DNA from: an uncultured Anaerolineaceae bacterium
GTDB lineage: Bacteria > Chloroflexota > Anaerolineae > Anaerolineales > E44-bin32
Assembly: GCA_964388955.1 (NCBI GenBank)
Contig: CAYMCO010000029.1
Span: forward strand, 1,197 to 65,196
Direction: 5' to 3'
DNA length: 64,000 bases
Shown: one piece after another, positions 4,364-63,984 of the stretch
How positions within the stretch are numbered: position 1 is the stretch's first letter
How the letters are laid out: each line of letters starts with the position of its first letter
Translations under genes and position numbers: made by a program
The notes under the pieces: generated by a model
Told to the model about the DNA's origin: nothing
What the model saw: the letters and a program-made list of their open reading frames with translations, nothing else
Databases searched by the model: none

Positions 4364-4804
4364 TCACTCATTCCTCAACCATCCCCAGCGGCATGCCCCG
4401 AGGATGGTCCCATCCATCTCCGGCATGTATACACAAGAATCCCTTTTAGGGCAATGCGCGATCTGTCTGCCCCGCAGCTCCTTGCGCCTCTCCATGGCAT
4501 TCTTTTGTGACTTGATCGGACAATCTCGCTTGAATCTCACCAGCTCAAAGATCCGAACATCGATCCGTTGCCCGGCCGCCTTCCTGGGCAGAGCCGCCGC
4601 GCCGAGGCAGTCTGGGGAACGCCGGAGCACAACTCTCCCACAACTGGCCAACTCTCCGTGATCGGATGCGGGCGATGTCTGCCGGCGGCCATTCCCGATT
4701 TCATCGAGATCGAGGGGATAGCCGCCGCTTTCGCCCGGGGTTGGCGGTCGGGGCCATTGATGGGGTCGATGCAAGCAGTAGCCGCCGGAAACGTCTTGCC
4801 ACAC
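4364..4804 (-). CDS. Hypothetical protein (uncertain; fills the gap between the flippase-like and SPFH genes)
   Basis: 146-aa ORF on the operon strand with GC-rich third positions. It ends 17 nt before the SPFH ATG. I recognise no family. A second minus-strand frame (4537..) looks equally coding-like, so frame and start are unresolved. Confidence 0.3.
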   Translation of the reverse strand: MWQDVSGGYCLHRPHQWPRPPTPGESGGYPLDLDEIGNGRRQTSPASDHGELASCGRVVLRRSPDCLGAAALPRKAAGQRIDVRIFELVRFKRDCPIKSQKNAMERRKELRGRQIAHCPKRDSCVYMPEMDGTILGACRWGWLRNE

Positions 4805-21509: not shown

Positions 21510-22717
21510 GGCACCACCTCGAACTGGTCCAACGGCCGATGAATAACATCCACACCCGGGACAAACGGCGGTGCTTCCTCAGCCAGTGAGAAGACCACGC
21601 ACCGCCGTGTGCGGGCCCGGAGGCGGAGAAGCGCTTCCAGCAATTCTGGAGGCGTAATGCCGGTGACCACCAGCAACGTCGAGCCGTACTCCAGATGCGG
21701 AGCCTGCTGAAGCAGGAATTGTTCAAAGGGCGCAGATACGAACGGGGTCAACGCAGCCAGCATCTCGAGGATTTGCGGGAGATGGCGTGGGGACCGCCCC
21801 GGCGGGATCCGAAAAGGCTGTGCCCCACGGGCCACCGCCCCGTTGGATATCAAGCCCACCCTGAATCCCTGCTCGTAAGCTTCCATGATCAGGGAGGCCG
21901 CGGTCACCACCAGCGCCTCCAGCATTTCGGGCAGATACCCCATCCAATAGCGGGCCAAGGTGGTCACGTTGAGACAGACGATCAGATCCGTGCCCGACAC
22001 CGGCTGGAACACCCGGCTCTGCAGCTCACCGGTGCGTGCGGTAGCGGGCCAATGGATACGGCGAAATCCATCCTGCGGTTGATAGTCCCGCACTCCGATC
22101 GGTTGGGTGACATCTTCGAACAGCCTGCGCCGGCTGCTCCGCACCCCAAAGGGATCCTCGGCCCGCAGGCCCAACTCACGCACCGGCCGGACCTTCGGGA
22201 AGACCACCAATTGCTCCTGCTTCTCCCCCACCTTCTCCGAATAGAAGAGCCCAAAAGGGTCGCCGGATCGCAGCATCACCGGCCCGACTCGATACAAACC
22301 CCGGGTCCTAAAGAGCAGTTCAAAGGAACGCCGCACCTTGGCGAAGCCGCGCATCACGAGCACCAGACTTAGGGCGCCTTCGCCGCCCCCCTCTCCCTGC
22401 TCCGAAAAGGCCGCGTCCGTCGGGCTGACCTCATACGGCCATGGATCAACGCATTTCAGCCACGCCAGGGGGAAGAGTTTACGGTTTTCCACCTCGATTT
22501 CTACGCCCACGCTCTCGCCTGGAAAGGCCCGCCGGTACTGCGGGCGGCGGGCATGGCGCACCTCTCGCAGAGCCTCGCGGTTCCACAACCAGGAGAATGC
22601 CAGCACGACACCCATCATTCCGACCAGCGCCAGCACACCGGTCGAGCCGAGCAGGTAGCCAAGTATTAAGAGGAAGACCGTCAGCCGTACCCAGGCCTCG
22701 CTCAGCGTTACCCGCAT
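21506..22717 (-). CDS. DUF58 domain protein (vWA-like, MoxR partner)
   Basis: VRDYQPQDGFRRIHWPATARTGELQSRVF is the DUF58 signature. The start MRVTLSEAW at 22717 has two TM helices. The gene overlaps the 5' start (ATG at 21509) of the downstream DUF4129 gene by 4 nt. Confidence 0.85.
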   Translation of the reverse strand: MRVTLSEAWVRLTVFLLILGYLLGSTGVLALVGMMGVVLAFSWLWNREALREVRHARRPQYRRAFPGESVGVEIEVENRKLFPLAWLKCVDPWPYEVSPTDAAFSEQGEGGGEGALSLVLVMRGFAKVRRSFELLFRTRGLYRVGPVMLRSGDPFGLFYSEKVGEKQEQLVVFPKVRPVRELGLRAEDPFGVRSSRRRLFEDVTQPIGVRDYQPQDGFRRIHWPATARTGELQSRVFQPVSGTDLIVCLNVTTLARYWMGYLPEMLEALVVTAASLIMEAYEQGFRVGLISNGAVARGAQPFRIPPGRSPRHLPQILEMLAALTPFVSAPFEQFLLQQAPHLEYGSTLLVVTGITPPELLEALLRLRARTRRCVVFSLAEEAPPFVPGVDVIHRPLDQFEVVP

Positions 22718-22721
22718 ACAC

Positions 22722-23663
22722 TCACTCTTCCACGGGGACCGGCACTCCGGAGACCACGTCGTCAACGAGGTCTGCGACCTCCCGGCCCCTCAGCTGTGCC
22801 TGCGGCGATATCATCAACCGGTGGGTGAGCACAAACGGGGCCATCCGCTTGACATCGTCAGGGATGACGTATTCCCGGCCCTGGATCGCCGCCCATGCCT
22901 GCGCCATCATGAACAACCCCAGGGTCGCGCGTGGGCTGGCGCCGAGGTCGATTTCCGGGTTTTCACGCGTCGCCCGGGCGACGGCGACGACATAATTGCG
23001 CACCGAGGTTTCCAGGCGCACGTCCTGCCGCAGGCGCCCCAGCTCCAGGATTTCCTCCGGGCTGGTAACCGCCCCCAAGGAGGCCAGCGGATCCCCCGCC
23101 CGGAAGCGCACCAGGATGTCGTTTTCCTCCGCTTCGTCCGGATAGCCGATCACCAGGCGCATTAAGAACCGATCCAGCTGCGCCTCGGGCAGGGGGAACG
23201 TACCCTCCAACTCGACCGGGTTCTGAGTCGCCAGGACCAGAAAAGGGCGCGGCACCCCGCGGGACACGCCGTCCACCGTCACCTGCCGCTCCTGCATCGC
23301 CTCCAGCAAAGCAGACTGGGTGCGCGGGGTGGCGCGGTTGATCTCGTCCGCCAGGACGATCTGGCTCATCACAGGCCCCGGACGGTATTCAAAGCTCTGC
23401 ATTTTCTGGTTGAACCAGTTGATTCCCGTCACATCAGAGGGCAGCAGATCGGGCGTGAACTGGATCCGCTGAAATGTGCAGCCGAGCGATGCCGCAAGAG
23501 AGCGCGCCAACGTCGTCTTCCCGATTCCCGGGACATCCTCCAGCAGGATATGCCCCTCGCACAAGACCGCCGCCAACGCCATATCGATGACCTCACCCTT
23601 GCCGACGATCACCTGCTGTATGTTTTCGCGGATCCTCCGCGCCACCTGGCTGACTTTTCCCAT
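22722..23663 (-). CDS. MoxR-family AAA+ ATPase
   Basis: 313 aa starting from MGKVSQVARRI. Walker A LLEDVPGIGKTTLA, Walker B VLADEINRATPRTQSALLEAMQE and LVLATQNP are present. The rest of the 660-aa track ORF is an antisense artefact. Confidence 0.9.
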   Translation of the reverse strand: MGKVSQVARRIRENIQQVIVGKGEVIDMALAAVLCEGHILLEDVPGIGKTTLARSLAASLGCTFQRIQFTPDLLPSDVTGINWFNQKMQSFEYRPGPVMSQIVLADEINRATPRTQSALLEAMQERQVTVDGVSRGVPRPFLVLATQNPVELEGTFPLPEAQLDRFLMRLVIGYPDEAEENDILVRFRAGDPLASLGAVTSPEEILELGRLRQDVRLETSVRNYVVAVARATRENPEIDLGASPRATLGLFMMAQAWAAIQGREYVIPDDVKRMAPFVLTHRLMISPQAQLRGREVADLVDDVVSGVPVPVEE

Positions 23664-23725
23664 GTCTCGCCTCTTGTCCCTCACCCCTTCGAGGCGCGAG
23701 TATAGCATGGATCGCGGGGCCCCAA

Positions 23726-23734
23726 TGTTATAAT
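23726..23734 (+). promoter_or_regulatory. Extended -10 promoter for dinG
   Basis: TGtTATAAT at 23726-23734. The ATG at 23748 lies 13 nt downstream, so the leader is very short. Confidence 0.45.
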
Positions 23735-23747
23735 CCAAGACCACAGG

Positions 23748-26534
23748 ATGAGAACACTGGTCGCGCTCGATGTGGAAACCACAGGATTGGACCCGGAACG
23801 CGATGCCATTATCGAGTTTGGCGCCGTGCGCTTCCGAGATACCCACGTGGAAGAGCCATTTCACCGACTGATCAACCCCGGCCGTCCCCTTCCCCCCGAG
23901 ATCGTCAACCTCACCGGTATCACCGACGACATGCTCGCCGGAGCGCCGCGCATGACCCGGGTGCTCGACGACATTAGATCGTACGTCGGCGATGACCCGA
24001 TCCTCGGCCACAGCGTCCAATTCGATCTCGCTTTTCTCCAGCCCAAAGGGCTGTTCCGCGACAATCAGCGCCTGGACACCTATGATCTGGCCTCCGTATT
24101 GATGCCCTCCGCCGCCCGCTACAGTCTTTCTGCTCTGGCGAGCGCCCTTGCGGTGCCCGTCCGGGAGACGCATCGTGCCCTCGACGACGCCCAGACCACC
24201 CGCATGGTCTTCATGCGCCTGATGGACATCGTACGAGAGCTCCCCTGGGAGCTGGTGGAGGAGATCACCCGTCTCGGCGCTGAGGTGGAGTGGGGCGCGG
24301 GGTTCATCTTCGACGAAGTGTTCGAGGACCTGCGCGACCGCGCACCGGCGCTGCGCCACGAGGCCTTCCACCTGTCTTTTCCCGGGCCGGATGCACTTGG
24401 AGATCCGATCGTCCCGAGAGACCCGCCGCAACCTCTGGACCCGGAGGCGTTGTCGGCGCTCATCGAACCGGGAGGCGCGGTGGCCGAGAATTTCCCCGCC
24501 TATGAACACCGGGCAGAGCAGATAGCCATGCTGCAGGCCGTGGCCCAGGCGCTGTCCGAAAGCCAACACCTGCTGGTGGAGGCCGGCACAGGCATCGGGA
24601 AATCCCTGGCCTACCTGATCCCTGCCTTCGCCTGGGCGGAGCGCAACGGGGAGCGCGTGGTGGTCTCCACCAACACCATCAATCTCCAGGACCAGCTCAT
24701 CCACAAGGACGTCCCCGACCTGGACCAGGCCCTAGGGAAGGACTATCGGGCTGCGGTGCTCAAGGGCCGCGCCAATTACCTGTGTCCGCGCAGGCTTTCC
24801 GCCCTCCGGCGAGTCGGCCCCGGATCCGCGGAGGAGATGCGGGTGCTGGCCAAGGTGCTGGTATGGCTGGCTCGCGACGGAACCGGCGATCGAACCGAGA
24901 TCACTCTGCGCGGGCCGGGAGAGGCCGCCGTTTGGTCGTCTTTGTCCTCGGACAGCCCGGAGTGTTCCCCGGACTCCTGCCACGCCTTTGGGGAAGGCGC
25001 TTGTCCCTACTACTTCGCCCGCCAGGCCGCCGAGCGGGCGCACGTGGTGATCGTCAACCACGCGCTTCTGCTGGCGGATATCATGGCCGGCAACCGCGTG
25101 ATTCCCGAATTCCGCTACTTGATTGTGGACGAGGCCCATCACCTGGAATCCGCCACCACCCAGTCCATGCGGCTGCGGGTGACCGAATCCGAAATCAGCC
25201 GCCTGCTGCGCGCCATCGACCGCGCCCGGGACGGTCTGCCGGGTCGTATGGTTGAAATCGCGCGCGCCGAACTGAAGCCGGAGGCATTGGAGAGGGTGCG
25301 CAGCGCCTCGGTCGAGATCGCCCAGAGGGCCCGGGAATGCCAGAGGATGGCTTCGGCGTTCTTTTCGGCCGTGGGTGAGTTCCTCGCCGAGCAGCGGGAG
25401 GGCGCCGATATCGGCCCGTATCCGCAGCAGGTGCGAATCACTCCTTCCACCCGCACTCTCCCGGGGTGGACACCCGTCGAGATCAGCCTGGATGATCTGA
25501 CTCCACCGCTTTCGGACCTCTCCGCAAGGCTGATCAGCATTGGGGACGAATTGGCTGAGCTGGGCGCCCGGGGCTCCAGCGCCGCCGAGGATCTGGCGGT
25601 GTCCGTCCGCGGTCTTGGCCGGGATCTGGGCGAGATACACGATCAGCTCACGCATATCGTCTTCGACCCCGCCAACAATGTGGTCTATTGGGCGGAGATC
25701 CACCCCAGGGCAATGGCGCCCTCTCTGAACGCCGCGCCGCTGGAGATCGGGACCATGGTGCAGCGCTTTCTGTGGCACGAAAAAGAATCGGTGATCATGA
25801 CCTCCGCCACGCTCACCACTGCGGGCGAATTCGATTACATGCGCCAGCGCTTGATGGCACAGGAGGCCGAGGAGTTGGCCTTGGGATCGCCCTTCGACTA
25901 CGAGAACTCGGCCATGTTGTACCTGATCAACGACATTCCAGAGCCCAACGATCGGCGCAGATACCAATATGCGGTCGAGAAAGGCCTGACCGGATTGTGC
26001 AAAGCCACCGGGGGGCGGGCCCTGGTGCTGTTCACTTCCTACAACCAACTCCGGCGCACCTCCCAAGCCATCTCGGGCCCGCTCGCCAACTACGGCATTG
26101 TGGTCTACGAGCAGGGGGAGGGCGCCTCCCGACACGCCCTTCTGGAGAGCTTCCGGACAACCGATCAGGCGGTTCTGCTGGGCACCCGCTCCTTCTGGGA
26201 GGGTGTGGACGTCCCCGGGCCGGCGCTCTCCGTGCTCGCGCTCATCCGGCTGCCCTTCGACGTGCCCAGCGACCCCATCATCGCCGCACGCTCCGAGACC
26301 TACGAGTCCCCCTTCGATCAGTACGCCGTTCCCGAGGCCGTCCTTCGTTTCCGGCAAGGCTTCGGGCGGTTGATTCGCACCCGTTCGGACCGCGGAGTTG
26401 TGGCGGTTTTCGACGTGCGCGTGCTGACCAAGAACTACGGACGAGCCTTCATCGACTCGCTCCCACGCTGTACCGTGCGCCGCGGCCCGCTCGCCAACCT
26501 TCCCAGTGCTGCCGCTCGCTGGCTGGGGATATAG
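23748..26534 (+). CDS. dinG: DnaQ-like 3'-5' exonuclease fused to a DinG-family ATP-dependent DNA helicase
   Basis: The N-terminus LVALDVETTGLDPERDAIIEFGAV...HRALDDAQ carries the Exo I-III motifs. It is followed by EAGTGIGKSLAYL (Walker A), DEAHHLE, a 4-Cys region and C-terminal helicase motifs. Confidence 0.9.
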   Translation: MRTLVALDVETTGLDPERDAIIEFGAVRFRDTHVEEPFHRLINPGRPLPPEIVNLTGITDDMLAGAPRMTRVLDDIRSYVGDDPILGHSVQFDLAFLQPKGLFRDNQRLDTYDLASVLMPSAARYSLSALASALAVPVRETHRALDDAQTTRMVFMRLMDIVRELPWELVEEITRLGAEVEWGAGFIFDEVFEDLRDRAPALRHEAFHLSFPGPDALGDPIVPRDPPQPLDPEALSALIEPGGAVAENFPAYEHRAEQIAMLQAVAQALSESQHLLVEAGTGIGKSLAYLIPAFAWAERNGERVVVSTNTINLQDQLIHKDVPDLDQALGKDYRAAVLKGRANYLCPRRLSALRRVGPGSAEEMRVLAKVLVWLARDGTGDRTEITLRGPGEAAVWSSLSSDSPECSPDSCHAFGEGACPYYFARQAAERAHVVIVNHALLLADIMAGNRVIPEFRYLIVDEAHHLESATTQSMRLRVTESEISRLLRAIDRARDGLPGRMVEIARAELKPEALERVRSASVEIAQRARECQRMASAFFSAVGEFLAEQREGADIGPYPQQVRITPSTRTLPGWTPVEISLDDLTPPLSDLSARLISIGDELAELGARGSSAAEDLAVSVRGLGRDLGEIHDQLTHIVFDPANNVVYWAEIHPRAMAPSLNAAPLEIGTMVQRFLWHEKESVIMTSATLTTAGEFDYMRQRLMAQEAEELALGSPFDYENSAMLYLINDIPEPNDRRRYQYAVEKGLTGLCKATGGRALVLFTSYNQLRRTSQAISGPLANYGIVVYEQGEGASRHALLESFRTTDQAVLLGTRSFWEGVDVPGPALSVLALIRLPFDVPSDPIIAARSETYESPFDQYAVPEAVLRFRQGFGRLIRTRSDRGVVAVFDVRVLTKNYGRAFIDSLPRCTVRRGPLANLPSAAARWLGI

Positions 26535-26608
26535 GCGCACCGCGCTGTGCGGCATGCGCGGCGCGCGAAGGACGACCGGCATTGGGCCACGCGCCGTAAT
26601 CCGGATGG

Positions 26609-26670
26609 CGAACGACAGGGCTTTCGAGCGCCGTGAACGTGCCAACGTGCAACGTGTAACGCCTGACCCG
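26609..26670. repeat. Dispersed intergenic repeat module with an AACGTG array (copy A)
   Basis: CGAACGACAGGGC...AACGTG at 26636, 26644 and 26651 (period 8 then 7)...GACCCG. It parallels 39928-40015. Confidence 0.6.
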
Positions 26671-26899: not shown

Positions 26900-27212
26900 G
26901 GCTTGTACTCGCACCAGCCTCGCGCCAGGTGGGAAGATGCTCATGCCGGAGATGTCTTTGTGTGGACGCCGCGCCGGGGTGTCTCAAAGGTGCCGTAGGA
27001 CGACTTAGGCCTCCGGCAGGTGAGGATGATGAGCGGCTGGGTAGGGAGATGGCCGCGCCAACTCAGGGCTCATCACTCTCCCGGGGCCCCTCCTTCCTCC
27101 CTCCCGTCGTCCCATCGATTGCATCCCAAGACACTTGCCACAATAATTGACGGTGGGCGAGGCCCACTCCCTCCTCGCAGGCCCGGGCCCAGCGAATCCA
27201 GGAGAACACCAG

Positions 27213-28580
27213 ATGGAAACAGCCCTCCAGCTCGCCGAACAGCACCAAGGCCGATTCCTCCGGCAGCTCATCGACCTGCTGCGCATCCCCTCCGTGTCCA
27301 CCGACTCCGAATCCCGCGAGGCGGTACTCCGGGCCGCGCGGTGGAACGCCGATCGTTTGCGCGCTCTGGGGGCGACCGGTGTCCAAGTCCTGCCCGTGGG
27401 CGAGCATCAGGCGGTGCTCGGCGAAATCGCCGGGCCCGCGTCGGCGCAGACCCTGCTGGTATACGGCCACTACGACGTCATGCCCCCAGATCCCATCGAA
27501 GCATGGACCTCCAAGCCCTTCGAACCGGTCGTGCGCGACGATTACATCTACGGGCGCGGGGCGAGCGATATGAAGGCCCAGTTGGTGGCTTTCTACTCGG
27601 CGATCGATTGCCTGGAGCAAGCCAGTGGGGTGCCCGTCAAGCTGGTCTTTCTCTTGGACGGCGCCGAGGAGGCCGGCTCTGATGCGCTGGATGATTTCAT
27701 CCGCGCCCAGGCGGACCGGTTGGCCTGCGACTTCTGCCTCAACTTGGACGGAAACATCCTCGGCCCCGAGCAGCCCTCTCTGACTTACGCCGTGCGGGGG
27801 ATCGCGTATTTCGAACTCCACGTACGCGGTCCGGAACGGGATCTGCACTCCGGCAAATTCGGCGGCCCGGTGGACAACCCGGCCCTGGTGCTGTGCGAGG
27901 TCATCGGCAAAATGCGGGACGACCACGGCCGCGTGGCCCTTCCCGGCTTCTATGACCCCGTCCGCCCGCTCTCGGCGGAGGAGCGGGCGGCGATCGCCGA
28001 TCTTCCCACCGACGATGCGTGGTGGGAAAGGAGCGCCGGCGTCAGGGCGCTGCGGCGGGAAGGCGATTTCACCGCTACCGAGCTGGCCACGGCCCAGCCG
28101 ACATTGAACATCAACGGCCTTCTTGCCGGACACACCGGCCCCGGTGCCAAGACCGTGATCCCCGCCAGCGCCATGGCCAAGATCTCCATGCGTTTGGTGC
28201 CGGATCAGAACGCCGCCCAGGTGGAGGCGAGCCTGATCGAACACCTGCACGCCCATATGCCGGATACGGTCGAGTGGGAATTGCGTGAGCTGCCCGGCAT
28301 CCGCCCGGCCGTGATGGATCGGGACGCCCCGCAGGTGAGGGCGGCCGCCCGCGCCTTGCGAGATACTTGGGGCGTGGAGCCGCTGTTCGTGCGCGAGGGC
28401 GCCAGCGTCCCCATCAACAGCCAAGTGGCAGAGGTCTTGGGCGCGGGCAGCATCAACATGGGCTTCGGCCTGCCGGACGACAATATCCACGCCCCCGACG
28501 AGCGCATGAATCTGACTCTCTTTCGCCGCGGCATCGAGGCCTACATCCGGTATCTGCAGGAGCTGGGACGGCTAACCTGA
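27213..28580 (+). CDS. M20-family dipeptidase / peptidase
   Basis: METALQLAEQH...LLRIPSVS...YGHYDVMPPDP...YGRGASDMKAQ...DGAEEAGS. ATG at 27213 follows the RBS GGAGAA. Confidence 0.85.
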   Translation: METALQLAEQHQGRFLRQLIDLLRIPSVSTDSESREAVLRAARWNADRLRALGATGVQVLPVGEHQAVLGEIAGPASAQTLLVYGHYDVMPPDPIEAWTSKPFEPVVRDDYIYGRGASDMKAQLVAFYSAIDCLEQASGVPVKLVFLLDGAEEAGSDALDDFIRAQADRLACDFCLNLDGNILGPEQPSLTYAVRGIAYFELHVRGPERDLHSGKFGGPVDNPALVLCEVIGKMRDDHGRVALPGFYDPVRPLSAEERAAIADLPTDDAWWERSAGVRALRREGDFTATELATAQPTLNINGLLAGHTGPGAKTVIPASAMAKISMRLVPDQNAAQVEASLIEHLHAHMPDTVEWELRELPGIRPAVMDRDAPQVRAAARALRDTWGVEPLFVREGASVPINSQVAEVLGAGSINMGFGLPDDNIHAPDERMNLTLFRRGIEAYIRYLQELGRLT

Positions 28581-37687: not shown

Positions 37688-38992
37688 ATGAGCGGGGATG
37701 AAGGTCCCGACCTCGATCAGCGTCGTTGCTCCTTCTGCAACCGGTCGGAGCCGGATGTGCTCCGGCTCATCACCGGTCCAGAGGGTGTCTGCATCTGCAA
37801 CGAATGCGTTGACCTCTGCCAGGATATCCTTCAGGGCGGCCCCCAGCCCTCCGCGGGCTCGCTGGCCTACAGCGGGCGCCCTCCCCTTCCACCGCAGCGG
37901 ATATACGAGAAGCTCGAGGAATATGTGGTCGCTCAGGAACACGCCAAGCGGGTTCTCTCCGTAGCGGTATACAATCACTACAAGCGGATCGCGAGCCGGG
38001 GCGGCCGGGATGTCGAACTTGAGAAGAGCAATATCCTGCTCGTCGGGCCGACCGGCTGCGGCAAGACATTGCTCGCCCAAACGCTTGCCAGGATCCTCGA
38101 TGTTCCCTTCTGCATCGCCGATGCCACCGCGCTGACCGAGGCGGGATATGTCGGCGAGGACGTGGAAAACATACTGCTGCGCCTGCTGCAGGCCGCCGAT
38201 TTCAACGTCCCCCGGGCGGAGCGCGGCATTGTCTATATCGATGAGCTCGATAAGACCGCACGCAAGACCGGCGACAACCCCAGCATCACCCGCGATGTCT
38301 CCGGTGAAGGGGTTCAGCAGGCGCTGCTCAAGATCATCGAAGGCGCCATGGTCAACGTCCCCCCACAAGGGGGGCGGAAACATCCCCAACAAGAGTTCAT
38401 CCAAGTCAACACCACGGACATCTTGTTCATCTGCGGCGGGACATTCGACGGCCTAACGGAGATCGTGGCCGATCGCATCGGCCGGCGTGGGTATCTCGGC
38501 TTCCCGGGGACCCGGGCCAGCAGGGAGGCCATGGAGCTCGATTCCACGGCCTTGCTCAAGATGGTCGCGCCCGAGGATCTGATGCGCTACGGGATGATCC
38601 CTGAGCTGGTTGGCCGCCTCCCGATCGTCGCCAGCCTCCACCCCCTTGACAAGGACGCGCTGCGGGCTATTCTCACCGAGCCTCGCAACGCCCTGGCCCG
38701 ACAGTACCATCGCCTTTTCGAGATGGACAACGTGGTTCTCGATCTCACCGCCGATGCGTTGACCACAACCGCGGAAATGGCGTTGAAGTCGGAAACTGGA
38801 GCCCGTGGCCTGCGCTCCATCCTGGAGGCCACGCTGCTGGATGTGATGTACTCCATCCCCTCCCATCCCGAAGTCCGAAAGGTGATCGTGGATGGCGACA
38901 CCATCCTGGGGAAGTCCGAACCGCGGCTCCTCAACGCTCAGGGGGAGTTTGTGGAATGGGACCGTGGGGCGACCTTGTCGGATGCCGCCTGA
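37688..38992 (+). CDS. clpX: ATP-dependent Clp protease ATP-binding subunit ClpX
   Basis: The zinc ribbon [28 protein letters not shown], Walker [21 protein letters not shown] and the pore loop GYVGEDV are present. Confidence 0.95.
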
Positions 38993-39884
38993 TCTCCAAA
39001 GATTCCTTTTCCCGCCGATCGTCTCTACCTTCTCCATCGTTGCTTTCGATCCGCACGGCCCTGCCTGGGGCATCGCCGTGGCCTCCAAATTCCCCGCCGT
39101 CGGCGCTGTGGTTCCCTGGGCGCTGGCCGGCTCGGGAGCGGTTGCCACACAATCCTACGCCAATACGGCTTACGGGCCGCGCGGCCTGGAGCTGATGGGC
39201 GCCGGGAAAAGCGCCGAGGCGGCATTGGGAGAATTGATCGCGGGAGACGACGATCGCGCCACCCGGCAAGTCGGCTTGGTCGACGCCCAGGGGAGCGCAG
39301 CTACCTTCACCGGAGACGAGTGTCATGACTGGGCCGGCGGGCGTACAGGTGACGGTTTTTCGATCCAGGGGAACATTCTGGTAGGCCCGGAAGTGGTCGA
39401 GGCCATGGCGAAGAACTTCGAGGGCACCCAAGGGGGCCTGCCCGAGCGATTGATGGTCGCTCTGCAGGCAGGCGACCGCGCCGGTGGGGATCGCCGGGGG
39501 CGCCAGAGCGCGGCACTGCTGGTGGTTAAGACGGGTGGGGGATACGCCGGTCTCAACGACCGCTGGATCGATTACCGGGTCGACGATCACGTTGATCCGG
39601 TCCCTGAGCTTATCAAACTCCTCGAGCTGCACCATCTCTATTTCGAAGAGAGTCCGCCGGAGGACCGGGTAGATATTCGTGGCGAAGTGGCTGAGGACCT
39701 GCAGGCCATGATGACCCGTCTTGGCTACTACCAGGGGGAACTCACCGGCGAGCTCGACCCCGTCACCCGCAAGGCCCTGGAAGCCTTTATTGGCGCGGAG
39801 AACTTTGAAGATCGCACAGACCTGGATAGCGGAAAGATAGACCGCCCGGTCTACGAGTACCTGCACCGCAAGTTCAAAGCATGA
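38982..39884 (+). CDS. DUF1028 (Ntn-hydrolase-like) protein with a C-terminal peptidoglycan-binding-like domain
   Basis: [33 protein letters not shown] is DUF1028-like. The C-terminal [32 protein letters not shown] resembles PG_binding_1. The ATG at 38982 overlaps the clpX stop by 11 nt, so the start is uncertain. Confidence 0.65.
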
Positions 39885-50197: not shown

Positions 50198-52786
50198 ATG
50201 AATCCTGCGATTGAGAAATTGAGCAAATACCTGCGGCTCGAAGCGCAGCGGGGTTATGACAACCGCGCCATAATGGGCGGCCTGCAGCAGATGCTGGATC
50301 CCTGGCGCTCCGAAGCGGAGAGCAGCGGCACCTCGGAGGAGTTGGTTGAAGCGGTGACCACCCGCCTGCGCGACTACCCGCGTCTCAGCCCCGAATCGCG
50401 TCGCGAGGTTCTCCTTGGCTTGTGGCGGAGGCTGCAGGGCGAGCATACTGGCGTCGGTGAGTTTCCCGGGATCGATGGGCCGGGGGCGGGGCACGTAGAA
50501 ACAGCGGAAGTTTCGGGTGCGCCTTCGAAGTCAGAATCGATCGAGGCGCAAACAATGCCAAAGCGAGAGGGCGCCGGCGGGGAAAAAGGGGGAGGGGGAG
50601 AGGCGCTCAAAGAATGGGGGGACGCGGCGCCGAGCGCGGATCGGCCAGGCACAGGTGAGCAACCTGCGACAGACGCCGCGGCCGGCCCGAAGAGAGCCCA
50701 GCCGGAACCAGAGGGTCCACCCGCCGCAATGGACGCTCCCCTCACGGCCCTGCGCGGGGTGGGGGAGAAGACCTCCAAGACTCTCTCCAAACTGGGGCTC
50801 AATAACCTGGGAGATTTGCTCTGGCATCTGCCCAGGCGCTACGATGATTATTCCCGGTTGAAGACCATCAACCGCCTATGGTACGGGGAGGAAGTGACCA
50901 TCATTGGCACGGTGGAAAGCGTCGACCTGCGGACCGCCCGGGGGGGCAGGATGAAGCTTGTCGACGCAGTGGTCAGCGACGGCACCGCGGCCTTGCGGGT
51001 CACTTGGTTCAACCAGCCCTGGATTGCGGATAAGCTTCAGCCTGGGCGGGCGATCGTGCTGTCAGGAAAGGTGGACCAATATCTGGGACGCCTGACGATG
51101 AACAATCCGGAATGGGAGCCGGTGGAACGAAAGCAGCTCCACACGAACCGAATCGTCCCTGTCTACCCCCTGACCGCGGGCATCACCTCCAAATGGCTGC
51201 GCCGGGTGATGCATGGCCTCATCAACCGTCTGGCGCCGCGCGTGCCCGATCCGCTGCCTGAGGACGTCATCCAATCGGCTGATCTGATGGCGCTTGGCGA
51301 CGCGCTCCGCCAGGTTCACTTCCCCGACAGTTGGGAACTACTCCGGCGCGCGCAGGCGCGCCTTGCATTCGACGAAATGTTCATGCTGCAGTTGGGGGTC
51401 TTGCGCCAGAAGGCGGATTGGGAATCGCTGACCTCACCGCCCCTGGGCGTGGACGACGTCTGGATCGATAACTTCCTCGACTCGCTCCCTTTCAAACTCA
51501 CGCCCGCCCAACATCAAGCGCTCGAAGATCTCAGAGCGGACATGGCCGCGGCGCGGCCCATGAATCGTCTGCTCCAAGGGGATGTTGGGTCGGGAAAGAC
51601 GGTCATTGCCGCCGCAGGGATGGGAATTGCGCTCGCCAACCGCAAACAATCTGCCCTGCTTGCCCCCACCAGCATCCTCGCCGAGCAGCATCTGGACACT
51701 TTGCTTGAAGTGCTGCCTGCGGCGGCCGGGATGCAGGCCCGTGACATCCGTTTGCTGATCGGCGCCACGCCGGAGAGCGAGAAGGCCGAAATCCGGGAGG
51801 GATTGTCGAGCGGTGAGATCGCGGTTGTCGTCGGCACCCACGCTTTGCTCGAGGATCCGGTCCACTTTGGGGACTTGGGGCTCGTGGTGATCGATGAACA
51901 ACATCGTTTCGGAGTCGAACAGCGCGCCGAGCTGCGCGCCAAAGGCGATAATCCGAACCTGATGGTCATGACTGCAACTCCGATCCCGCGCTCGCTTGCG
52001 CTGACTCTCTATGGAGATCTGGATTTGACCGTGATCGACGAATTGCCTCCGGGCCGGAAGCCCATCGAGACGCGCGTTCTACGCCCCATCGAACGAGGGC
52101 GCGCCTACACGTTCATCATCACCCAAATCGAAGCCGGGCATCAGGCCTTTGTCATCTATCCGCTGGTGGAGGAATCCGAGAAAGTGGACGCCAAGGCCGC
52201 CGTCGATGAGTTCGAGCGCTTGGCGAAGGACGTCTTCCCCGAGTATGACGTGGGTCTCGTACATGGGCGCCTCCCGCCCGATGAAAAAGAGCGCGTCATG
52301 AAGCGATTTCGGGCTGGGGAGATTGATGTGCTCGTGTCCACCTCGGTGATCGAAGTGGGCATCGACGTCCCCAACGCCACGGTGATGCTTGTCGAGGGCG
52401 CCGATCGATTTGGCCTCGCGCAGCTGCATCAGTTCCGCGGCCGAGTAGGCCGCAGCAGCCACCGTTCCTACTGCCTGCTGATACCCTCCAATGATGAGGA
52501 TGCCGAGAACAAGCGCCTGAAGGCCATGGAAGCCACCAATGACGGCTTCGAGCTCGCGGAATTGGATCTCGAATACCGGGGGCCGGGGGATTTTCTCGGA
52601 ACACGCCAGTCAGGCTTCACCGAGCTGCGGATGGCAAAACTTACGGATGTGCGCCTGATCGAAAGGGCCCGCCAACAGGCCAGGCGCGTCTTTGAGGCCG
52701 ACCCGGCTCTGTCGATGCCGGAGCACGTCCTGCTGGCCGAGGCGGTGGACCGCTTCTGGGCCGTAGGAAAAGGAGAGATCAGTTGA
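50198..52786 (+). CDS. recG: ATP-dependent DNA helicase RecG with an approximately 185-aa N-terminal extension
   Basis: The canonical part starts at LTALRGVGEKTSKTL..LLWHLPRRYDDYS. It has a wedge domain, GDVGSGKTV, DEQHRFGV and TATPIPRSL. Confidence 0.9.
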   Translation: MNPAIEKLSKYLRLEAQRGYDNRAIMGGLQQMLDPWRSEAESSGTSEELVEAVTTRLRDYPRLSPESRREVLLGLWRRLQGEHTGVGEFPGIDGPGAGHVETAEVSGAPSKSESIEAQTMPKREGAGGEKGGGGEALKEWGDAAPSADRPGTGEQPATDAAAGPKRAQPEPEGPPAAMDAPLTALRGVGEKTSKTLSKLGLNNLGDLLWHLPRRYDDYSRLKTINRLWYGEEVTIIGTVESVDLRTARGGRMKLVDAVVSDGTAALRVTWFNQPWIADKLQPGRAIVLSGKVDQYLGRLTMNNPEWEPVERKQLHTNRIVPVYPLTAGITSKWLRRVMHGLINRLAPRVPDPLPEDVIQSADLMALGDALRQVHFPDSWELLRRAQARLAFDEMFMLQLGVLRQKADWESLTSPPLGVDDVWIDNFLDSLPFKLTPAQHQALEDLRADMAAARPMNRLLQGDVGSGKTVIAAAGMGIALANRKQSALLAPTSILAEQHLDTLLEVLPAAAGMQARDIRLLIGATPESEKAEIREGLSSGEIAVVVGTHALLEDPVHFGDLGLVVIDEQHRFGVEQRAELRAKGDNPNLMVMTATPIPRSLALTLYGDLDLTVIDELPPGRKPIETRVLRPIERGRAYTFIITQIEAGHQAFVIYPLVEESEKVDAKAAVDEFERLAKDVFPEYDVGLVHGRLPPDEKERVMKRFRAGEIDVLVSTSVIEVGIDVPNATVMLVEGADRFGLAQLHQFRGRVGRSSHRSYCLLIPSNDEDAENKRLKAMEATNDGFELAELDLEYRGPGDFLGTRQSGFTELRMAKLTDVRLIERARQQARRVFEADPALSMPEHVLLAEAVDRFWAVGKGEIS

Positions 52787-53313
52787 TGGTCAGGGCAATC
52801 TTCCCGGGGACCTTCGATCCCATTCACTTTGGCCATATCGACATTGCCCACCGGGCGGCCGACTTGTTCGACGAGCTCATCGTCGCGGTCTACGATCGCC
52901 CGCTGAAGGCCCTGCTGTTCTCCCCGGAGGACCGCCTCGAGATGGCGCAGCGCACCTTCGAAGGCGCGGAGCGCATTCGGGTGATCGGCTACCAGGGCCT
53001 CACCGTCGAGCTGTGCCGCAGGCTGGGCGCCAAGGTGGTCGTGCGCGGCCTGCGGGTCTTCTCCGACTTCGAACACGAGTTCCGCATGGCGCTCGCCAAT
53101 CACCGCTTGGCGCCAGAGGTCGAAGTGGTCGCACTGATCACCAGCGAGCAGCACACCTTCTTGACGGGCACCACTGTGCGGGAGATCGCCTCCCTGGGCG
53201 GGGATGTCAGCAGCATGGTCCCCGAACACGTTTCCAGGGCCCTGAAGAGCCGCTTTCTCGAGTTGGGCGACGACGGGCCGACGAACTATTCGGCCACTAC
53301 GTTTCTGGATTAA
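52786..53313 (+). CDS. coaD: Pantetheine-phosphate adenylyltransferase
   Basis: AIFPGTFDPIHFGHIDIAHRA...RGLRVFSDFEHEF...VSSMVPEHV. The ATG overlaps the recG TGA (TGATG). Confidence 0.9.
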   Translation: MVRAIFPGTFDPIHFGHIDIAHRAADLFDELIVAVYDRPLKALLFSPEDRLEMAQRTFEGAERIRVIGYQGLTVELCRRLGAKVVVRGLRVFSDFEHEFRMALANHRLAPEVEVVALITSEQHTFLTGTTVREIASLGGDVSSMVPEHVSRALKSRFLELGDDGPTNYSATTFLD

Positions 53314-53412
53314 CAGCCTTGCGGCCCTGTCACGTTCGGTGTACCCTTTTCGCTGATACTCGCATCCGCGGGCCCGCGCCCTTTCCGGCCTGCAGGTAGA
53401 GCGGAGGTATCC

Positions 53413-53913
53413 ATGGACATATTCCATCTGGTGGATCGACTGGAGGAACTGTTCAATGAAAGTCGACCCATCCCTCTCACGCGGAACGTAATTGTCGATG
53501 AGGACCGCATCCTGGATATCATCGATCAGATGCGGATCTCTGTTCCTGACGAGGTCAAGAAGGCTCAGCAGATCCTGGCGCAGCGAGACCGTGTGTTGGC
53601 CCAAGCCCAGGAGGAGGCGAACCGCACCCTGGCGATCGCAAAGAAAAGGGCGGATGAGATGATGGAAAAAGAGGCCATCATCCAGGCGGCCCAGCCGCGC
53701 GCCGAGCAAATCCTCAGCGACACGAAGGGTGATGCCGAGGCCATCATGCGCGACGCAGATCGATATGTCGTCGACTCCCTCCGCTCGCTGGAGGCCGAGC
53801 TGCTGCGCATGTTGTCGCAGGTACGAAATGGGATTGCCAAGATGAACGCCGAACTCGAATACGCGAAGCGAGACATGGAAGAGCAGGAACGCGCGCCCAA
53901 GCCATCTTCGTAG
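53413..53913 (+). CDS. Coiled-coil hypothetical protein (ATP-synthase-b/DivIVA-like heptads)
   Basis: 166 aa. MDIFHLVDRLEELFNESRPIPLTRNVIVDEDRILDIIDQMR is followed by a long charged helix. The family is not firmly recognised. Confidence 0.6.
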   Translation: MDIFHLVDRLEELFNESRPIPLTRNVIVDEDRILDIIDQMRISVPDEVKKAQQILAQRDRVLAQAQEEANRTLAIAKKRADEMMEKEAIIQAAQPRAEQILSDTKGDAEAIMRDADRYVVDSLRSLEAELLRMLSQVRNGIAKMNAELEYAKRDMEEQERAPKPSS

Positions 53914-53959
53914 ATGCAGCACCCGCCGTCTTCTCTATAGAGAGCCGCCCCCTCTGCGC

Positions 53960-55639
<1,680 letters not shown>

Positions 55640-59688: not shown

Positions 59689-61131
59689 TCAGCGGGGCGG
59701 GCGCCACCAGTCGAAGTAGTCTCCCCATTCCACGTGACCATAATAGCCGAGCCCATTGGCCAACGGGCCGATTCCATCGACGACTTCGGCCGTCCGCCCT
59801 TCCTGCAGCTCCGCCAGCCACAAGGAAGCGTGATCGAGAGCATCAAGCCGGACGAAGAGGATCGAGTCTCCGTCCCCGGACCAAAGTGGGCGTTCGTCCC
59901 GGTACGTGTCCCCCTCGGTTAGTTTGCGAGCTTGCCCTGAGGCGATATACATCACCCAGATGCTCCGGTCCATCACCATCTCTTCAGGACTCTCCCCCTC
60001 GGCGGATGACATATCCGGCATCGCCGAAAAAGCGATCTTGGAGGCATCCGGGGACACGGCCGGCCACAGGACGGCCTGATCACGCTCCGTCAGAGCGCGG
60101 GCAACCCCGTTCGCCGGATCAACGACAGCCAGACGTTTGTTCACCCACGTCTCCCGCCCTCCACCCAGGACGACAAGAACGCGATCCGATGAGTCTTGAG
60201 GAGTTTCCGGGAAGCGAACCACGAAATCATCGTAAACGAGGACGCTCGCGGTGGGCGCCGATTGTCCAACTGACTCATTGAGATCTTTTCCCATCTCGAT
60301 TGGGTTGCCGCCGGCCGCCGCAAGCGCATATAGCGGAGTGCCATCCGCCAGCAGCGAAGCAGAGGGAATGGGCCCCTGCCAAAACAGCAGCGCTGATCCA
60401 CCGGCGGTCCACTTTGCTACGGTTGAAGCCCCTTTATCCGGCATGCCGCTGTCGAAGAGCTGAATCAGTTTCCCATCCGCGAGCCGGATCTGCCAGATCC
60501 CTTGATAGGCTGGCCCACCCGCTTCGCCGCGACCCAGCCAGTCGAACGCCAGCATTTCCCCCGCCGGTCCCCATGCCAGCCTGCGGATTTCCCCCTGGGA
60601 GGCAATGGACGCGCTCAGATCATTCCCGCCAACGAGCAAGGTGGCCGCGCTGGCGCCACCGCTCGTCAAGTAGAGATCCCCGTCGGCAACGAACGCCAAA
60701 TCATCCGTTCTCGGAGACCAGGCGAACGACCCAACCTGCCCTTCTGAAACCAAGATGGGGGCGGCTCCCTCGGTCCTCACATCCATCGTGGCCAGGCCAT
60801 CACCGGCCATACGGAACGCCAGCCATCGTCCGCTGGGCGACCAGCGCGGCTCGCTGAGGGCCTCCCCTTCGACGAGGGGCTGCGAAGCGCCGGTCTCGAA
60901 ATCATGAATCCAGAGACTTCCATTCTTGACAAAGGCGACGGGGCCAAAGCCCCGTACGTCCTGCGCCTCGGTCTCGAAGGTCGCCGTTGGACGGGCGGTT
61001 GGTCCGGCTTCCGATGCAGTGGCCTCGGGGGTACTGCCGGTCGGCGTCGCGGCCGTGCAGCCGGCGGCGACAAAACAGACGACCGCAGCCGAAAGAGGTA
61101 GGCCCTTTCGCACTCTCTCACAGATACACAT
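59689..61131 (-). CDS. TolB-like beta-propeller (PD40/WD40-like repeat) lipoprotein
   Basis: The lipobox is VAAGC. Repeated motifs of the type SPDG/WSP.G..LAF (PRWSPSGRWLAF, AWSPRTDDLAF, AVSPDASKIAF, LWSGDGDSILF) are present. Confidence 0.7.
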   Translation of the reverse strand: MCICERVRKGLPLSAAVVCFVAAGCTAATPTGSTPEATASEAGPTARPTATFETEAQDVRGFGPVAFVKNGSLWIHDFETGASQPLVEGEALSEPRWSPSGRWLAFRMAGDGLATMDVRTEGAAPILVSEGQVGSFAWSPRTDDLAFVADGDLYLTSGGASAATLLVGGNDLSASIASQGEIRRLAWGPAGEMLAFDWLGRGEAGGPAYQGIWQIRLADGKLIQLFDSGMPDKGASTVAKWTAGGSALLFWQGPIPSASLLADGTPLYALAAAGGNPIEMGKDLNESVGQSAPTASVLVYDDFVVRFPETPQDSSDRVLVVLGGGRETWVNKRLAVVDPANGVARALTERDQAVLWPAVSPDASKIAFSAMPDMSSAEGESPEEMVMDRSIWVMYIASGQARKLTEGDTYRDERPLWSGDGDSILFVRLDALDHASLWLAELQEGRTAEVVDGIGPLANGLGYYGHVEWGDYFDWWRPPR

Positions 61132-61275: not shown

Positions 61276-63984
61276 CTATTGCCCGCCATAGACCTGTACC
61301 GCACTGAGAAGCCTGTTGCCCACCGACCTCACCACCGCCGGATCCCCTTCCTCCAGACCCATCACGGCGGCAATCGCCCCCTCCGGCCGTGACACGGCCA
61401 GCATGAACCAACCGACTCCCTCCCCGCTTTCGCCACCGATCGCTTGCCCCTGGGTGGCGTAGCTTCCAGGAGCAACTTGGAACCATCCCTGTGCGGCCGC
61501 GGCCGTCTCGGCCGACAGGGCTCTCCGGGCTTCTGCGGTGACATCCGACTCCTGCCAGGTTCCATCGGGCATCCGTACCGAGTCCACCAGCCGCACCGCG
61601 GGAAGCGCACCAGCGTTGAACAGGGAGGACCAGGCGCGCGCCATCTGCAGAGGTGTGACGGTGAGAGTGCCCTGGCCGAACGCCTCCGCCCTAATCTCAT
61701 CTCGCGTGGAGGGAGCCGAGAGCTCGGCTGCCGGCGCCTCGGGCAGGAGCACGCCCGTGGGCTCGGCCAAGCCGAAGCCGCCGATCATATCCATCAACAC
61801 CTGGCCGGTGAAACTATCGCTGATCTGCACAAAGGGAGCCGGGCAACCCGAGCGAAAGGCCGCCGCCAAATCCTCTTCACCGGCGGTCACCGGCCACAAG
61901 CACTCCAGCTCCTGGCCATCGATCTGGATCGGCGCCTGGAGATCAAGCTCTGAGGGGAGGCCGGAAGGTGGGAGCAGATCGTGTTCTTGGGCCCACGCGG
62001 CCAGGAACGGCGCCATCGCCAGGCCGGGCTGGTAGCGCGCCTGGGTCGCCCGGTTCAGGAGCGGCGCATCATCCCGTTCGCGCAGCACCGTCCACTGCTC
62101 TTCCAGCCTTCCTGGGTCAAAGGAGGGCGCGGATGCCATCGCCAGCACTTCCCCGCTCCGCGCCTCCATGATCACGATCGCGCCGCGGCGCCCCTTCAAT
62201 ATCCTTTCCGCGGCCCGCTGCAGCGCCAAGTCCAGTGTCAGACGGACGTTCAGACCTGGAGGTGGAAATCCGGTCAGCATCTGCTGGCGGGCAATAAGCC
62301 AGGGGTCGTAACCGCGCTCCCCTCGCAGCCAGGGGTCCAGACTCCCCTCCAACCCAGCCTTGCCCAGCGCCAGCGAATCATAGCCCACCACGTGCGTCGC
62401 AGCTAAGGCCGGATAGAACCGCTCAAAGCCCTCCGCCTCGCGGCGGGACTCAGCGAGCGGGATATCGAGCCGATCCAGAATGCTGCCCCGCCTCACGTAC
62501 AGGCTGGCAGTCGCTGGCCGGGGGTTGTCGGCACGTGAAATCAGGCTATCCCGCTGCGCCACGCTCCACCAGCCCACCATCAGCGCCAGGCAGGCCAGCA
62601 TGGTGCCAAGTCCAAGTTGGATGGCGCGCAGAGGTGGCCGCATGGGAGACCAGCCCCCTCGCTCATCGGACAGCCGCAGCAGGAACCCCAGTGCAATGAA
62701 ACTGGTGAGCAGCGAGGAACCGCCGTACGAAACGAAAGGAAGCGTGACGCCGGTCAGGGGGAACAGGCGGATCACGCCTCCGATGATCAGCACCGATTGC
62801 AGCCCAAAAGCGGTAGCCAGACCTGCGGCAAGCAGTTTGGCGAAGACATCTCGGTGACCCATCGCCGCTTTCAGCCCGCGTGAGACCAATACAGCGATCA
62901 AGCCCAAAGCAGCCAGCCCGCCGGCCAACCCCCATTCTTCCACCAGGGCCGCAAATATGAAATCGGTGTGAGCTGCAGGGACAAAACCCGGGGATCCCAG
63001 GCCGGGCCCGCTGCCGGTCACCCCACCTGAGGCGAGCGCGATCAGGGATTGCACGGTTTGGTAGGAGCCGCCTAGGGGGTCCAACCAGGGGTTGAGCCAA
63101 GCCTGAAAGCGAATCCTGACCACCGAAAAAAGCATGCTGCCCAGCGCGCCGCCCAGGCCGATGACGCCGGCCCCAGCCAGCAGGACCTGCCATCGGCCGG
63201 AGGTCAGATAGAGTAGGACCGCCAGCAAGGCCACGAAGAGCGATCCCGTCCCCAGGTCGCGCTGCGCCACCAACAGGCCGATGGATAGGCCCCATACGGC
63301 CAGCACCGGCGCGAGGAGCGGCAGAATCGAGCCATCCGATGGGTCCCCTGCCTTCATACGTTCGGAAAAATAAGAGGCCAGGAAAGCAATCAGCAGCAGC
63401 CGGAGCGGCTCTGAGGGTTGGAAATAGATACCGCAGCATCCCAGCCACAGGCGCGGCTCGCCGCCGGAGGGATGGGTGCCAAAGACCAGGGTGAGCGAGG
63501 TCAGGAGCAGCCCTCCTGTCCACCAGAGATACCGATACCTGCGCAGCCAGCGCAGGTCATTCGGGCTGTGTACGATCCCCACCAGCGCAAGTGTGCCCAC
63601 GGCCATCCACACCAATTGGCGCGCGCCGAATGCGGGATACAATCGCCAGATCAGCAGGATGCCCCACCCGGTGAGCAGCATCCCCACCGGCAGCAGATAC
63701 GGATCGCGCCAAGGGACCTTGCGCCGCAGCGACCAGCGGATGATGCTCGCGCACACTGCCCAACCGGGAAGCACCAGCGCCATTCCCAGCCGCGCCCGCG
63801 AAGCCACCCACGCCCCTTGGCGGGCCGCAGGAGCTAGGTTCAGGCCGATGACCGTGGCGAGCAGAAAGCCGAACGCGAGGCAAAGAAGAACCGCCTCGCG
63901 TCGATCAACTCGCCGCTCGTCGTCAATCAAGATACTTCTCAACAAATATCCCCAGCCTCCGGCGCGCTGATTCAGGGATCGCAT
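61276..63984 (-). CDS. Fusion of a SEDS glycosyltransferase (FtsW/RodA family) to a class-B PBP-like domain
   Basis: The N-terminal approximately 470 aa is polytopic with HTDFIFAALVEEWG and PFVSYGGSS (SEDS motifs). The C-terminal approximately 430 aa has PBP2 dimerisation/TPase-like blocks: RGSILDR, HVVGY, GLEGSLD, LTLDLALQ, VLAMASAPSFDP and FGQGTLTVTPLQMA. Confidence 0.85.
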   Translation of the reverse strand: MRSLNQRAGGWGYLLRSILIDDERRVDRREAVLLCLAFGFLLATVIGLNLAPAARQGAWVASRARLGMALVLPGWAVCASIIRWSLRRKVPWRDPYLLPVGMLLTGWGILLIWRLYPAFGARQLVWMAVGTLALVGIVHSPNDLRWLRRYRYLWWTGGLLLTSLTLVFGTHPSGGEPRLWLGCCGIYFQPSEPLRLLLIAFLASYFSERMKAGDPSDGSILPLLAPVLAVWGLSIGLLVAQRDLGTGSLFVALLAVLLYLTSGRWQVLLAGAGVIGLGGALGSMLFSVVRIRFQAWLNPWLDPLGGSYQTVQSLIALASGGVTGSGPGLGSPGFVPAAHTDFIFAALVEEWGLAGGLAALGLIAVLVSRGLKAAMGHRDVFAKLLAAGLATAFGLQSVLIIGGVIRLFPLTGVTLPFVSYGGSSLLTSFIALGFLLRLSDERGGWSPMRPPLRAIQLGLGTMLACLALMVGWWSVAQRDSLISRADNPRPATASLYVRRGSILDRLDIPLAESRREAEGFERFYPALAATHVVGYDSLALGKAGLEGSLDPWLRGERGYDPWLIARQQMLTGFPPPGLNVRLTLDLALQRAAERILKGRRGAIVIMEARSGEVLAMASAPSFDPGRLEEQWTVLRERDDAPLLNRATQARYQPGLAMAPFLAAWAQEHDLLPPSGLPSELDLQAPIQIDGQELECLWPVTAGEEDLAAAFRSGCPAPFVQISDSFTGQVLMDMIGGFGLAEPTGVLLPEAPAAELSAPSTRDEIRAEAFGQGTLTVTPLQMARAWSSLFNAGALPAVRLVDSVRMPDGTWQESDVTAEARRALSAETAAAAQGWFQVAPGSYATQGQAIGGESGEGVGWFMLAVSRPEGAIAAVMGLEEGDPAVVRSVGNRLLSAVQVYGGQ

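Follow-up and report, generated by a model that had tools for sequence, protein, structure and literature searches.

A SEDS-PbpA fusion with a degenerate transpeptidase-like domain in the Anaerolineae

Results

Gene and domain architecture of the fusion

The stretch of DNA analyzed here (the window; 64,000 nucleotides, positions 1,197 to 65,196 of contig CAYMCO010000029.1, assembly GCA_964388955.1) derives from an uncultured Anaerolineaceae bacterium. Close to its end, the minus strand encodes a protein in which a RodA/FtsW-type SEDS polymerase is fused to a PbpA-type penicillin-binding protein of class B (bPBP), the transpeptidase domain of which is devoid of its catalytic residues (Table 1). 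Matches to PF01098 (SEDS), PF21922 (PbpA-type pedestal) and PF00905 (transpeptidase) were obtained in Pfam, the last spanning residues 601-837 and only positions 1-217 of the 299 positions of the profile. The database copy of the fusion (P0001) is 889 residues long, with its start 13 codons downstream. By its SEDS half the protein belongs to the SEDS family, and it counts among the bPBPs by structure but not by function.

Among structures of the Protein Data Bank (PDB), the first half of the fusion matched RodA and FtsW with E values of ~1e-28 (RodA 6pl5/6bar, ~5e-29), and the second half was matched best by PbpA-type bPBPs (Atopobium 4n1x/4jbf, Eggerthella 4mnr and Mycobacterium tuberculosis PbpA). 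The AlphaFold2 (AF2) model, built with the family alignment, had a mean predicted local distance difference test score (pLDDT) of 88.3 and a predicted template modeling score of 0.84, and the pedestal and transpeptidase-like blocks mostly exceeded a pLDDT of 90. When Foldseek was run against the PDB, M. tuberculosis PbpA ranked first (3upp/3un7, target-normalised template modeling (TM) score 0.75-0.79), followed by Eggerthella 4mnr (0.82) and the Atopobium entries (0.78-0.80).

Hydropathy and the AF2 helices yielded two extra N-terminal helices, ten helices of the SEDS core and one anchor helix, which carries the chain from the cytoplasmic C-terminus of the SEDS domain to the outside. Because the extra helices preceding the ten-helix core are even in number, the topological parity of the SEDS domain is kept; from the count of two, ten and one it follows that the PBP module is extracytoplasmic. 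R29, E30, L36 and F38 of the N-terminal extension are conserved in the family, and the extension is a possible cytoplasmic or membrane docking site.

Table 1. Features of the fusion gene, with window coordinates and the basis of each assignment.
Feature	Residues	Coordinates	Strand	Basis
Whole gene, 902-aa SEDS-PbpA fusion	1-902	61276..63984	minus	ORF translation and Pfam
N-terminal extension with two extra hydrophobic helices (~28-55, ~64-83)	1-92	63709..63984	minus	AF2 helices, hydropathy
SEDS (RodA/FtsW-type) glycosyltransferase domain	119-441	62662..63630	minus	PF01098, E 1.8e-71, 241.5 bits (cutoff 26.4)
QPSE motif; E192 equivalent to T. thermophilus RodA E108	189-192	63409..63420	minus	Alignment; invariant in family
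D341 in HTDF, RodA catalytic Asp (T. thermophilus D255)	341	62962..62964	minus	Alignment; invariant in family
Linker transmembrane helix, bPBP membrane anchor	449-476	62557..62640	minus	AF2 helices and hydropathy
PbpA-type pedestal/dimerisation domain	499-580	62245..62490	minus	PF21922, 30.2 bits (cutoff 27); AF2 pLDDT ~90-98; omega ~0.11
Transpeptidase-fold domain without catalytic residues	601-901	61282..62184	minus	PF00905, E 3e-24; Foldseek TM score; omega 0.13-0.27
SxxK equivalent L655-A656-M657-A658, N-terminus of helix 654-667	655-658	62011..62022	minus	HMMER, MAFFT, AF2
C695, invariant, partner of C714	695	61900..61902	minus	Family alignment
SxN equivalent G713-C714-P715, loop between helices 706-712 and 716-722	713-715	61840..61848	minus	HMMER, MAFFT, AF2
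Most likely KTG equivalent T844-Q845-G846, within predicted strand 841-850	844-846	61447..61455	minus	Two of three MAFFT alignments
Alternative KTG register E852-G854	852-854	61423..61431	minus	Third MAFFT and weak HMMER alignment

Catalytic motifs of the transpeptidase-like domain

From an earlier, sequence-only reading of this DNA it had been proposed that the transpeptidase is dead while the pedestal and the fold are retained, with Leu and Ala in place of the Ser and Lys of SxxK. This held up well. The codons at that position translate as LAMA, HMMER pairs SSFK of 4n1x and STVK of MrdA (6tii) with these four residues, and L655 occupies the position of the SxxK serine in the AF2 model. At the second motif, SSN of 4n1x, SAD of 6tii and SCN of active Chloroflexota orthologs all pair with GCP. 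SDS at residues 722-724 (61813-61821), the SxN candidate of the sequence-only reading, lies 9 residues past GCP inside the next helix and was ruled out by every alignment and by the predicted loop position; the motif is degenerate under either assignment. SxxK and SxN take the same positions in HMMER, in three alignments made with MAFFT and in the secondary structure of the AF2 model.

The third motif had been read as lost at 61447-61455. The loss itself stands, whereas the exact register is ambiguous because the family has a deletion of ~8 residues in the following loop; two of the three MAFFT alignments concur with the earlier placement. Residues 601-902 do not contain a single Lys, so neither SxxK nor KTG is possible anywhere in the domain and the question of the register is immaterial. 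An intact triad elsewhere in the sequence was rejected on the same ground.

A joint alignment with active relatives further revealed second-shell losses, namely the Thr following SxxK, the His of HAWF and ENGG, while 36 columns forming the structural core (e.g. YxPG, GQ and C695) are conserved in both the degenerate family and the active relatives. Since the nucleophilic Ser, both motif Lys residues, the Ser and Asn of SxN and several second-shell residues are replaced, the domain is, judged by its residues, unable to act as a serine D,D-transpeptidase or to be acylated by beta-lactams.

The SEDS active site

In contrast to the transpeptidase half, the SEDS half retains its active site. D341, E192 and the SYGGSS block are invariant in an alignment of 82 family sequences, and the codons of D341 and of QPSE were verified. 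The N-terminal part is thus predicted to be a catalytically competent SEDS peptidoglycan glycosyltransferase. The equivalog cutoffs were not reached for ftsW (TIGR02614, 232.9 vs 337.5) or rodA (TIGR02210, 204.5 vs 336.7), and the fusion protein also scored well below the cutoff of the NCBIfam pbp2 equivalog. The assignment as RodA is therefore based on synteny with PbpA and the FHA genes and not on an equivalog model.

Degeneracy throughout the lineage

The 120 best homologs (45-100% identity) all share the three-domain architecture, and the named ones stem from Anaerolineales or from Chloroflexota metagenome-assembled genomes. Among the 119 that were scored for motifs, none has Lys in the Lys column of SxxK or an SxxK motif within ±8 residues, and K[TS]G is absent from the C-terminal region of every one. 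The Ser column holds Ser in three homologs and otherwise M, T, L, G, A, V or P; at SxN the first residue is G, A, S or Q, the second is C in 119/119 and the third is P or A. As a control, the same procedure was applied to the 120 closest relatives (P0121-P0240) of the active ortholog L068. All three motifs were present in 118 of these, and the remaining two (P0199 and P0220) are partly decayed, reading AxxN, GCN and K(T/V)G. Because no intact site was found in 119 homologs versus 118 in the 120 control sequences, the dead site is a trait of the lineage and not a one-off.

P0199 and P0220 (L082:3178-4554) are unfused orthologs of 458 amino acids in the same locus, carrying PPGA(T/V)FN, GCN and K(T/V)GTAE. 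Judged from these motifs, they look like an intermediate between the active and the fully dead state.

Scanning the species genomes of GTDB with a 4-sequence alignment gave 549 relatives. The best 80 loci were analyzed and are all from Chloroflexota (Anaerolineales, Anaerolineaceae, Thermoflexales, Ardenticatenaceae, Promineifilaceae, Levilinea, Leptolinea and Bellilinea). In 56 of the 80 the genes are fused, and all 56 fused genes are degenerate, with no truncation or frameshift in any of them. SEDS and PBP lie in different frames in another 19 loci, 16 of which are degenerate as well. Intact PGS(S/T)(F/W)K, S(I/C)N and KTGTA motifs were found in loci L065, L068 and L071, plus L079. The profiling of motif loss and fusion across relatives that had been recommended earlier places the degeneracy in the lineage. 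The claim that the protein is a hard-wired fusion stood with respect to the SEDS-PBP fusion itself, but the fusion is not the essence of the system, as the same dead site often occurs in orthologs that are not fused.

A HMMER search with the PBP part against 1.84 billion representative proteins returned 332 clusters at E <= 1e-30. Among the best 150, which were scored, 141 were degenerate outright (35 fused, 12 with a partial SEDS domain and 94 standalone proteins or fragments), and two more contained only chance K[TS]G strings, giving 143/150; six were intact, and one did not cover the SxxK column. One of the six intact representatives, P0378 (880 aa), is a SEDS-PbpA fusion with PGSAFK, SCN and GKTGTA that resembles the known bifunctional type. 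It lacks the upstream Cys and is ~38% identical to the query in the PBP part, and its existence shows this subtype to include active as well as dead fusions.

Selection and newly conserved residues

Approximate ratios of nonsynonymous to synonymous substitution rates (omega, dN/dS) were calculated by the Nei-Gojobori method. For the least-diverged fused pair (L055/L056), omega was 0.065 in the SEDS domain, 0.11 in the pedestal and 0.13 in the transpeptidase-like domain; in other pairs, values of 0.13-0.27 for the transpeptidase-like domain were obtained. In every pair dN was far below dS. The dead module keeps its fold and is under purifying selection throughout the lineage, and therefore has a function.

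Six residues are invariant or nearly so in, and specific to, the degenerate family when aligned jointly with active relatives: W631, Q652, P659, P715, R783 and W810. W810 is located within an insertion that the active relatives lack, and the set from W631 to W810 lies at about 61555-62094 of the window. W631, Q652, P659, R783 and W810 together may mark a newly evolved interaction surface.

The invariant C714 (61843-61845) is the 'x' of the former SxN. SCN together with the upstream Cys was found in 86/120 active relatives, and the Cys pair is ancestral, since it is the majority state among these. C695 and C714 probably form a structural disulfide. In the searchable literature, from which subscription-only titles fell outside coverage, no report of a Cys pair in PbpA was found.

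The locus and the order of events

On the near-identical contig L001, the genes stand in the order tRNA synthetase, Archease, FhaA_N plus FHA, FHA, PNP_UDP_1, fusion, PD40 propeller. The FHA genes of L001 gave weak matches to NF049868 (FhaB), and the PNP_UDP_1 gene was identified as a methylthioadenosine (MTA) phosphorylase (MTAP; TIGR01694, 298 bits vs a cutoff of 274.85). Nearly all of the 80 loci have the MTAP-SEDS-PBP triad, and most also contain the two FHA genes. The synteny Archease-FhaA-FhaB-MTAP-SEDS-PBP is common to the query, to the intact loci L065, L068, L071 and L079 and to the intermediate P0220. The fusion is accordingly regarded as orthologous to the RodA-PbpA pair known from the FhaA/FhaB cell-wall cluster, being its counterpart in the Anaerolineae lineage with both proteins in one chain.

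The MTA phosphorylase gene directly precedes SEDS(-PBP), overlapping its start, in almost every Chloroflexota locus, be it active, intermediate or dead (L001:4466-5332, L068:7457-8536, L082:863-1735; the copy of the query lies just upstream of 63984, outside the window). It sits where PstP stands in the actinobacterial cluster. No kinase or PP2C gene was called in loci L001, L082 and L083.

A neighbor-joining tree with 100 bootstraps was rooted on the Atopobium domain as a single partial outgroup. The degenerate sequences were monophyletic in 93/100 bootstraps, with the active orthologs forming a basal grade, and the earliest degenerate branches were unfused lineages with xQ, ACP and HxG. This suggests a single catalytic loss and a later fusion: the catalytic loss appears to be older than the fusion because unfused dead orthologs are basal in the degenerate clade. 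The suggested order runs from active unfused PbpA over partly decayed (AxxN/GCN/KTG) and fully decayed unfused forms to the fully decayed fused form. A distance of ~6 bp separates the SEDS stop from the PBP start in L068, so that the loss of one stop codon would be enough for fusion.

Elsewhere in the window, a DUF4129-DUF58-MoxR AAA ATPase cluster (19962-24704, minus) and a CTP synthase gene (53978-55630, minus) are encoded; both are also found near the SEDS-PBP locus in the distant relative that carries P0220 (L082, L083), which indicates long-range synteny. Directly downstream of the fusion lies a gene for a predicted lipoprotein of 480 amino acids (59689-61131, minus) with weak matches to PD40, DPPIV_N and TolB-like beta-propellers. 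As a candidate for a conserved partner it was rejected, for it recurs only in L001 and was absent from the other 80 loci. Apart from the fusion, a single wall-associated gene was noticed in the window (38892-39884, plus); it combines DUF1028 with a C-terminal PG_binding_2 domain. ORFs 2814-4661 (plus), 24732-26645 (minus), 27063-28490 (minus) and 52468-53922 (minus), of 615, 637, 475 and 484 amino acids, gave no Pfam match at E <= 0.001; some of them overlap other ORFs and may not be genes.

Discussion

Taken together, these results are best explained by a RodA-PbpA ortholog pair that became fused and in which the dead PBP module is kept as a non-catalytic partner or activator of the SEDS polymerase, and we regard this explanation as probable. 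It would correspond to the catalysis-independent role of bPBPs. The pedestal and the anchor helix would hold the SEDS polymerase and activate it allosterically, and being fused would hold activator and enzyme at a fixed 1:1 ratio. Cross-linking of the glycan strands would then fall to another enzyme, be it a second bPBP, a class-A PBP (aPBP) or an L,D-transpeptidase, which the dead domain might recruit.

By analogy with engineered dead bPBPs, activation of SEDS is the most likely task of the dead module. In vitro, a PBP2x variant devoid of catalytic activity activates FtsW (10.1101/358663), and B. subtilis PBP2b and C. difficile SpoVD(S311A) are functional with their SEDS partners when another bPBP cross-links (PMC12713402). 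In these engineered proteins, as in the family described here, the transpeptidase is inactive; there, the SEDS partner is still supported. They are, however, single-residue laboratory mutants that need a back-up bPBP, whereas the loss in Anaerolineae is natural, affects three motifs plus the second shell and is fixed class-wide.

Among the closest known counterparts are the fused Coriobacteriia SEDS-PbpA proteins of Atopobium parvulum (4JBF, 4N1X, 4QJG and related entries) and Eggerthella lenta (4MNR), which gave the best sequence matches in the PDB (E ~1e-25), are among the best fold matches (TM scores 0.78-0.82) and have the PbpA-type pedestal in common with the query. These entries are titled 'D,D-transpeptidase domain of peptidoglycan glycosyltransferase', and their deposited names indicate an origin from SEDS-PBP fusions. 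The Coriobacteriia domains keep SSFK or STFK, 4mnr keeps KTGT, and several are acyl-enzymes with beta-lactams (penicillin, cephalosporin) and hence active; the query is without such residues.

The M. tuberculosis RodA-PbpA system resembles the query in that its PbpA ranks first in Foldseek, both have the PF21922 pedestal and FhaA-like and FhaB-like genes lie upstream. There, however, rodA and pbpA are separate genes and the transpeptidase is active, as beta-lactam acyl-enzyme structures exist. The M. tuberculosis cluster is composed of fhaA-fhaB-pstP-rodA-pbpA-pknA-pknB. The Chloroflexota loci differ from clusters of this type by the MTA phosphorylase gene before SEDS, and neither PP2C nor a Ser/Thr kinase was seen in the locus. 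The active Chloroflexota PbpA orthologs (L065, L068, L071, L079; P0121-P0240) match the query in locus (MTAP-SEDS-PBP), in pedestal type and in the Cys pair, but they are unfused, and their SxxK, S(C/I/V)N and KTGTA motifs are intact.

Several points weigh against the proposed activator role and its history. The tree is a distance tree with one partial outgroup, and shared active-site constraint could draw the active sequences towards that outgroup. The omega values were obtained at dS of ~0.8-1.1 or more, i.e. near saturation. The new invariants W631, Q652, P659, R783 and W810 hint at an added function beyond simple activation. Finally, no signature of another PBP, of an aPBP (GT51) or of an L,D-transpeptidase (YkuD) was detected among 30 large ORFs of the 64-kb window or by motif scans of 1.37 Mb of related loci, a negative that is uninformative for the remaining genome.

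The strongest alternative is that the dead module is kept mainly for a job other than activation, either as a reader or sensor of peptidoglycan or its stem peptides or as a docking platform for a transpeptidase or an FHA-linked regulator. The five residues just named, the last of them in an insertion, are absent from active relatives, two FHA-domain genes are closely linked to the locus, and the inactive bPBP of B. subtilis and C. difficile works alongside a second one (PMC12713402), all of which would fit such a job. On the other hand, the pedestal, the part that contacts SEDS in known complexes, is more constrained than the transpeptidase-like domain (omega 0.11 vs 0.13-0.27), and the fusion to SEDS favors an intramolecular 1:1 role. 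We therefore consider this alternative unlikely.

It is very improbable that the domain is still an enzyme that works through non-canonical residues, for instance with C714 as nucleophile in the manner of L,D-transpeptidases. Although neither C695 nor C714 varies within the family and the latter is situated in what was the SxN loop, the pair is most simply structural given its ancestry in active relatives, and on this ground C714 was rejected as a new nucleophile. The original nucleophile column, moreover, is hypervariable (M/T/L/G/A/V/P/S), there is no conserved general base and no Lys, and the second shell has decayed.

A shade less credible still is the idea of a functionless relic in neutral decay. 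The transpeptidase-like domain does evolve ~2x faster than the SEDS domain and has lost its catalytic and second-shell residues, but the excess of dS over dN in every pair, the confident AF2 model and the 56 fused genes free of truncations and frameshifts argue against it, as do the full-length fold kept in hundreds of species and the 36 columns still shared with active enzymes. That the degeneracy was produced by misalignment, with an intact triad at another place in the sequence, as the differing KTG registers might be taken to hint, has a practically negligible chance given the absence of Lys from the domain, the agreement of all methods on SxxK and SxN and the recovery of intact motifs in the controls.

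If the reading as a dead partner or activator is extended to the lineage, most of the class Anaerolineae would possess an elongation-type SEDS without a cognate D,D-transpeptidase. The bPBP partner would have become a pseudoenzyme once and early and would later have been joined to the polymerase, so that polymerisation and cross-linking would be permanently uncoupled. The beta-lactam-blind module would be a built-in allosteric switch, possibly with a new surface around W631, R783 and W810, and the cross-links would come from a non-cognate enzyme. We put forward this extended picture tentatively, as possible but with the balance leaning somewhat against it.

The fusion architecture as such has already been catalogued. 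In a survey from 2025, 117 InterPro proteins with SEDS and transpeptidase domains were termed putative 'bifunctional bPBPs' (PMC12516126), with the same order of SEDS, then pedestal or PBPA_dimer, then transpeptidase. The survey does not mention motif loss, whereas the Anaerolineae family fails in the transpeptidase half; in the query only the SEDS site is intact, so that it is not bifunctional. The new element would be a natural bPBP that is dead class-wide. The full-text literature searched, with subscription-only titles outside its coverage, yielded no account of a SEDS-partner bPBP that is inactive by nature, nor of the motif loss in Anaerolineae.

Labels such as 'bifunctional' should consequently be used with caution, for SEDS-PBP fusions carrying them are not necessarily so. 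The findings predict an elongation machine with a bPBP that would be intrinsically blind to beta-lactams, and they raise the question which enzyme cross-links the wall of filamentous Anaerolineae. Whether SEDS needs a bPBP as an enzyme or as an allosteric partner has until now been studied solely through point mutants of a small number of model species. The lineage described here would provide a natural and long-standing case in which the partner was kept for a non-catalytic role across hundreds of species and later fused, and its graded series within one locus (active, partly decayed, dead, and dead and fused) may allow the bPBP residues required for activation to be mapped apart from those required for catalysis.

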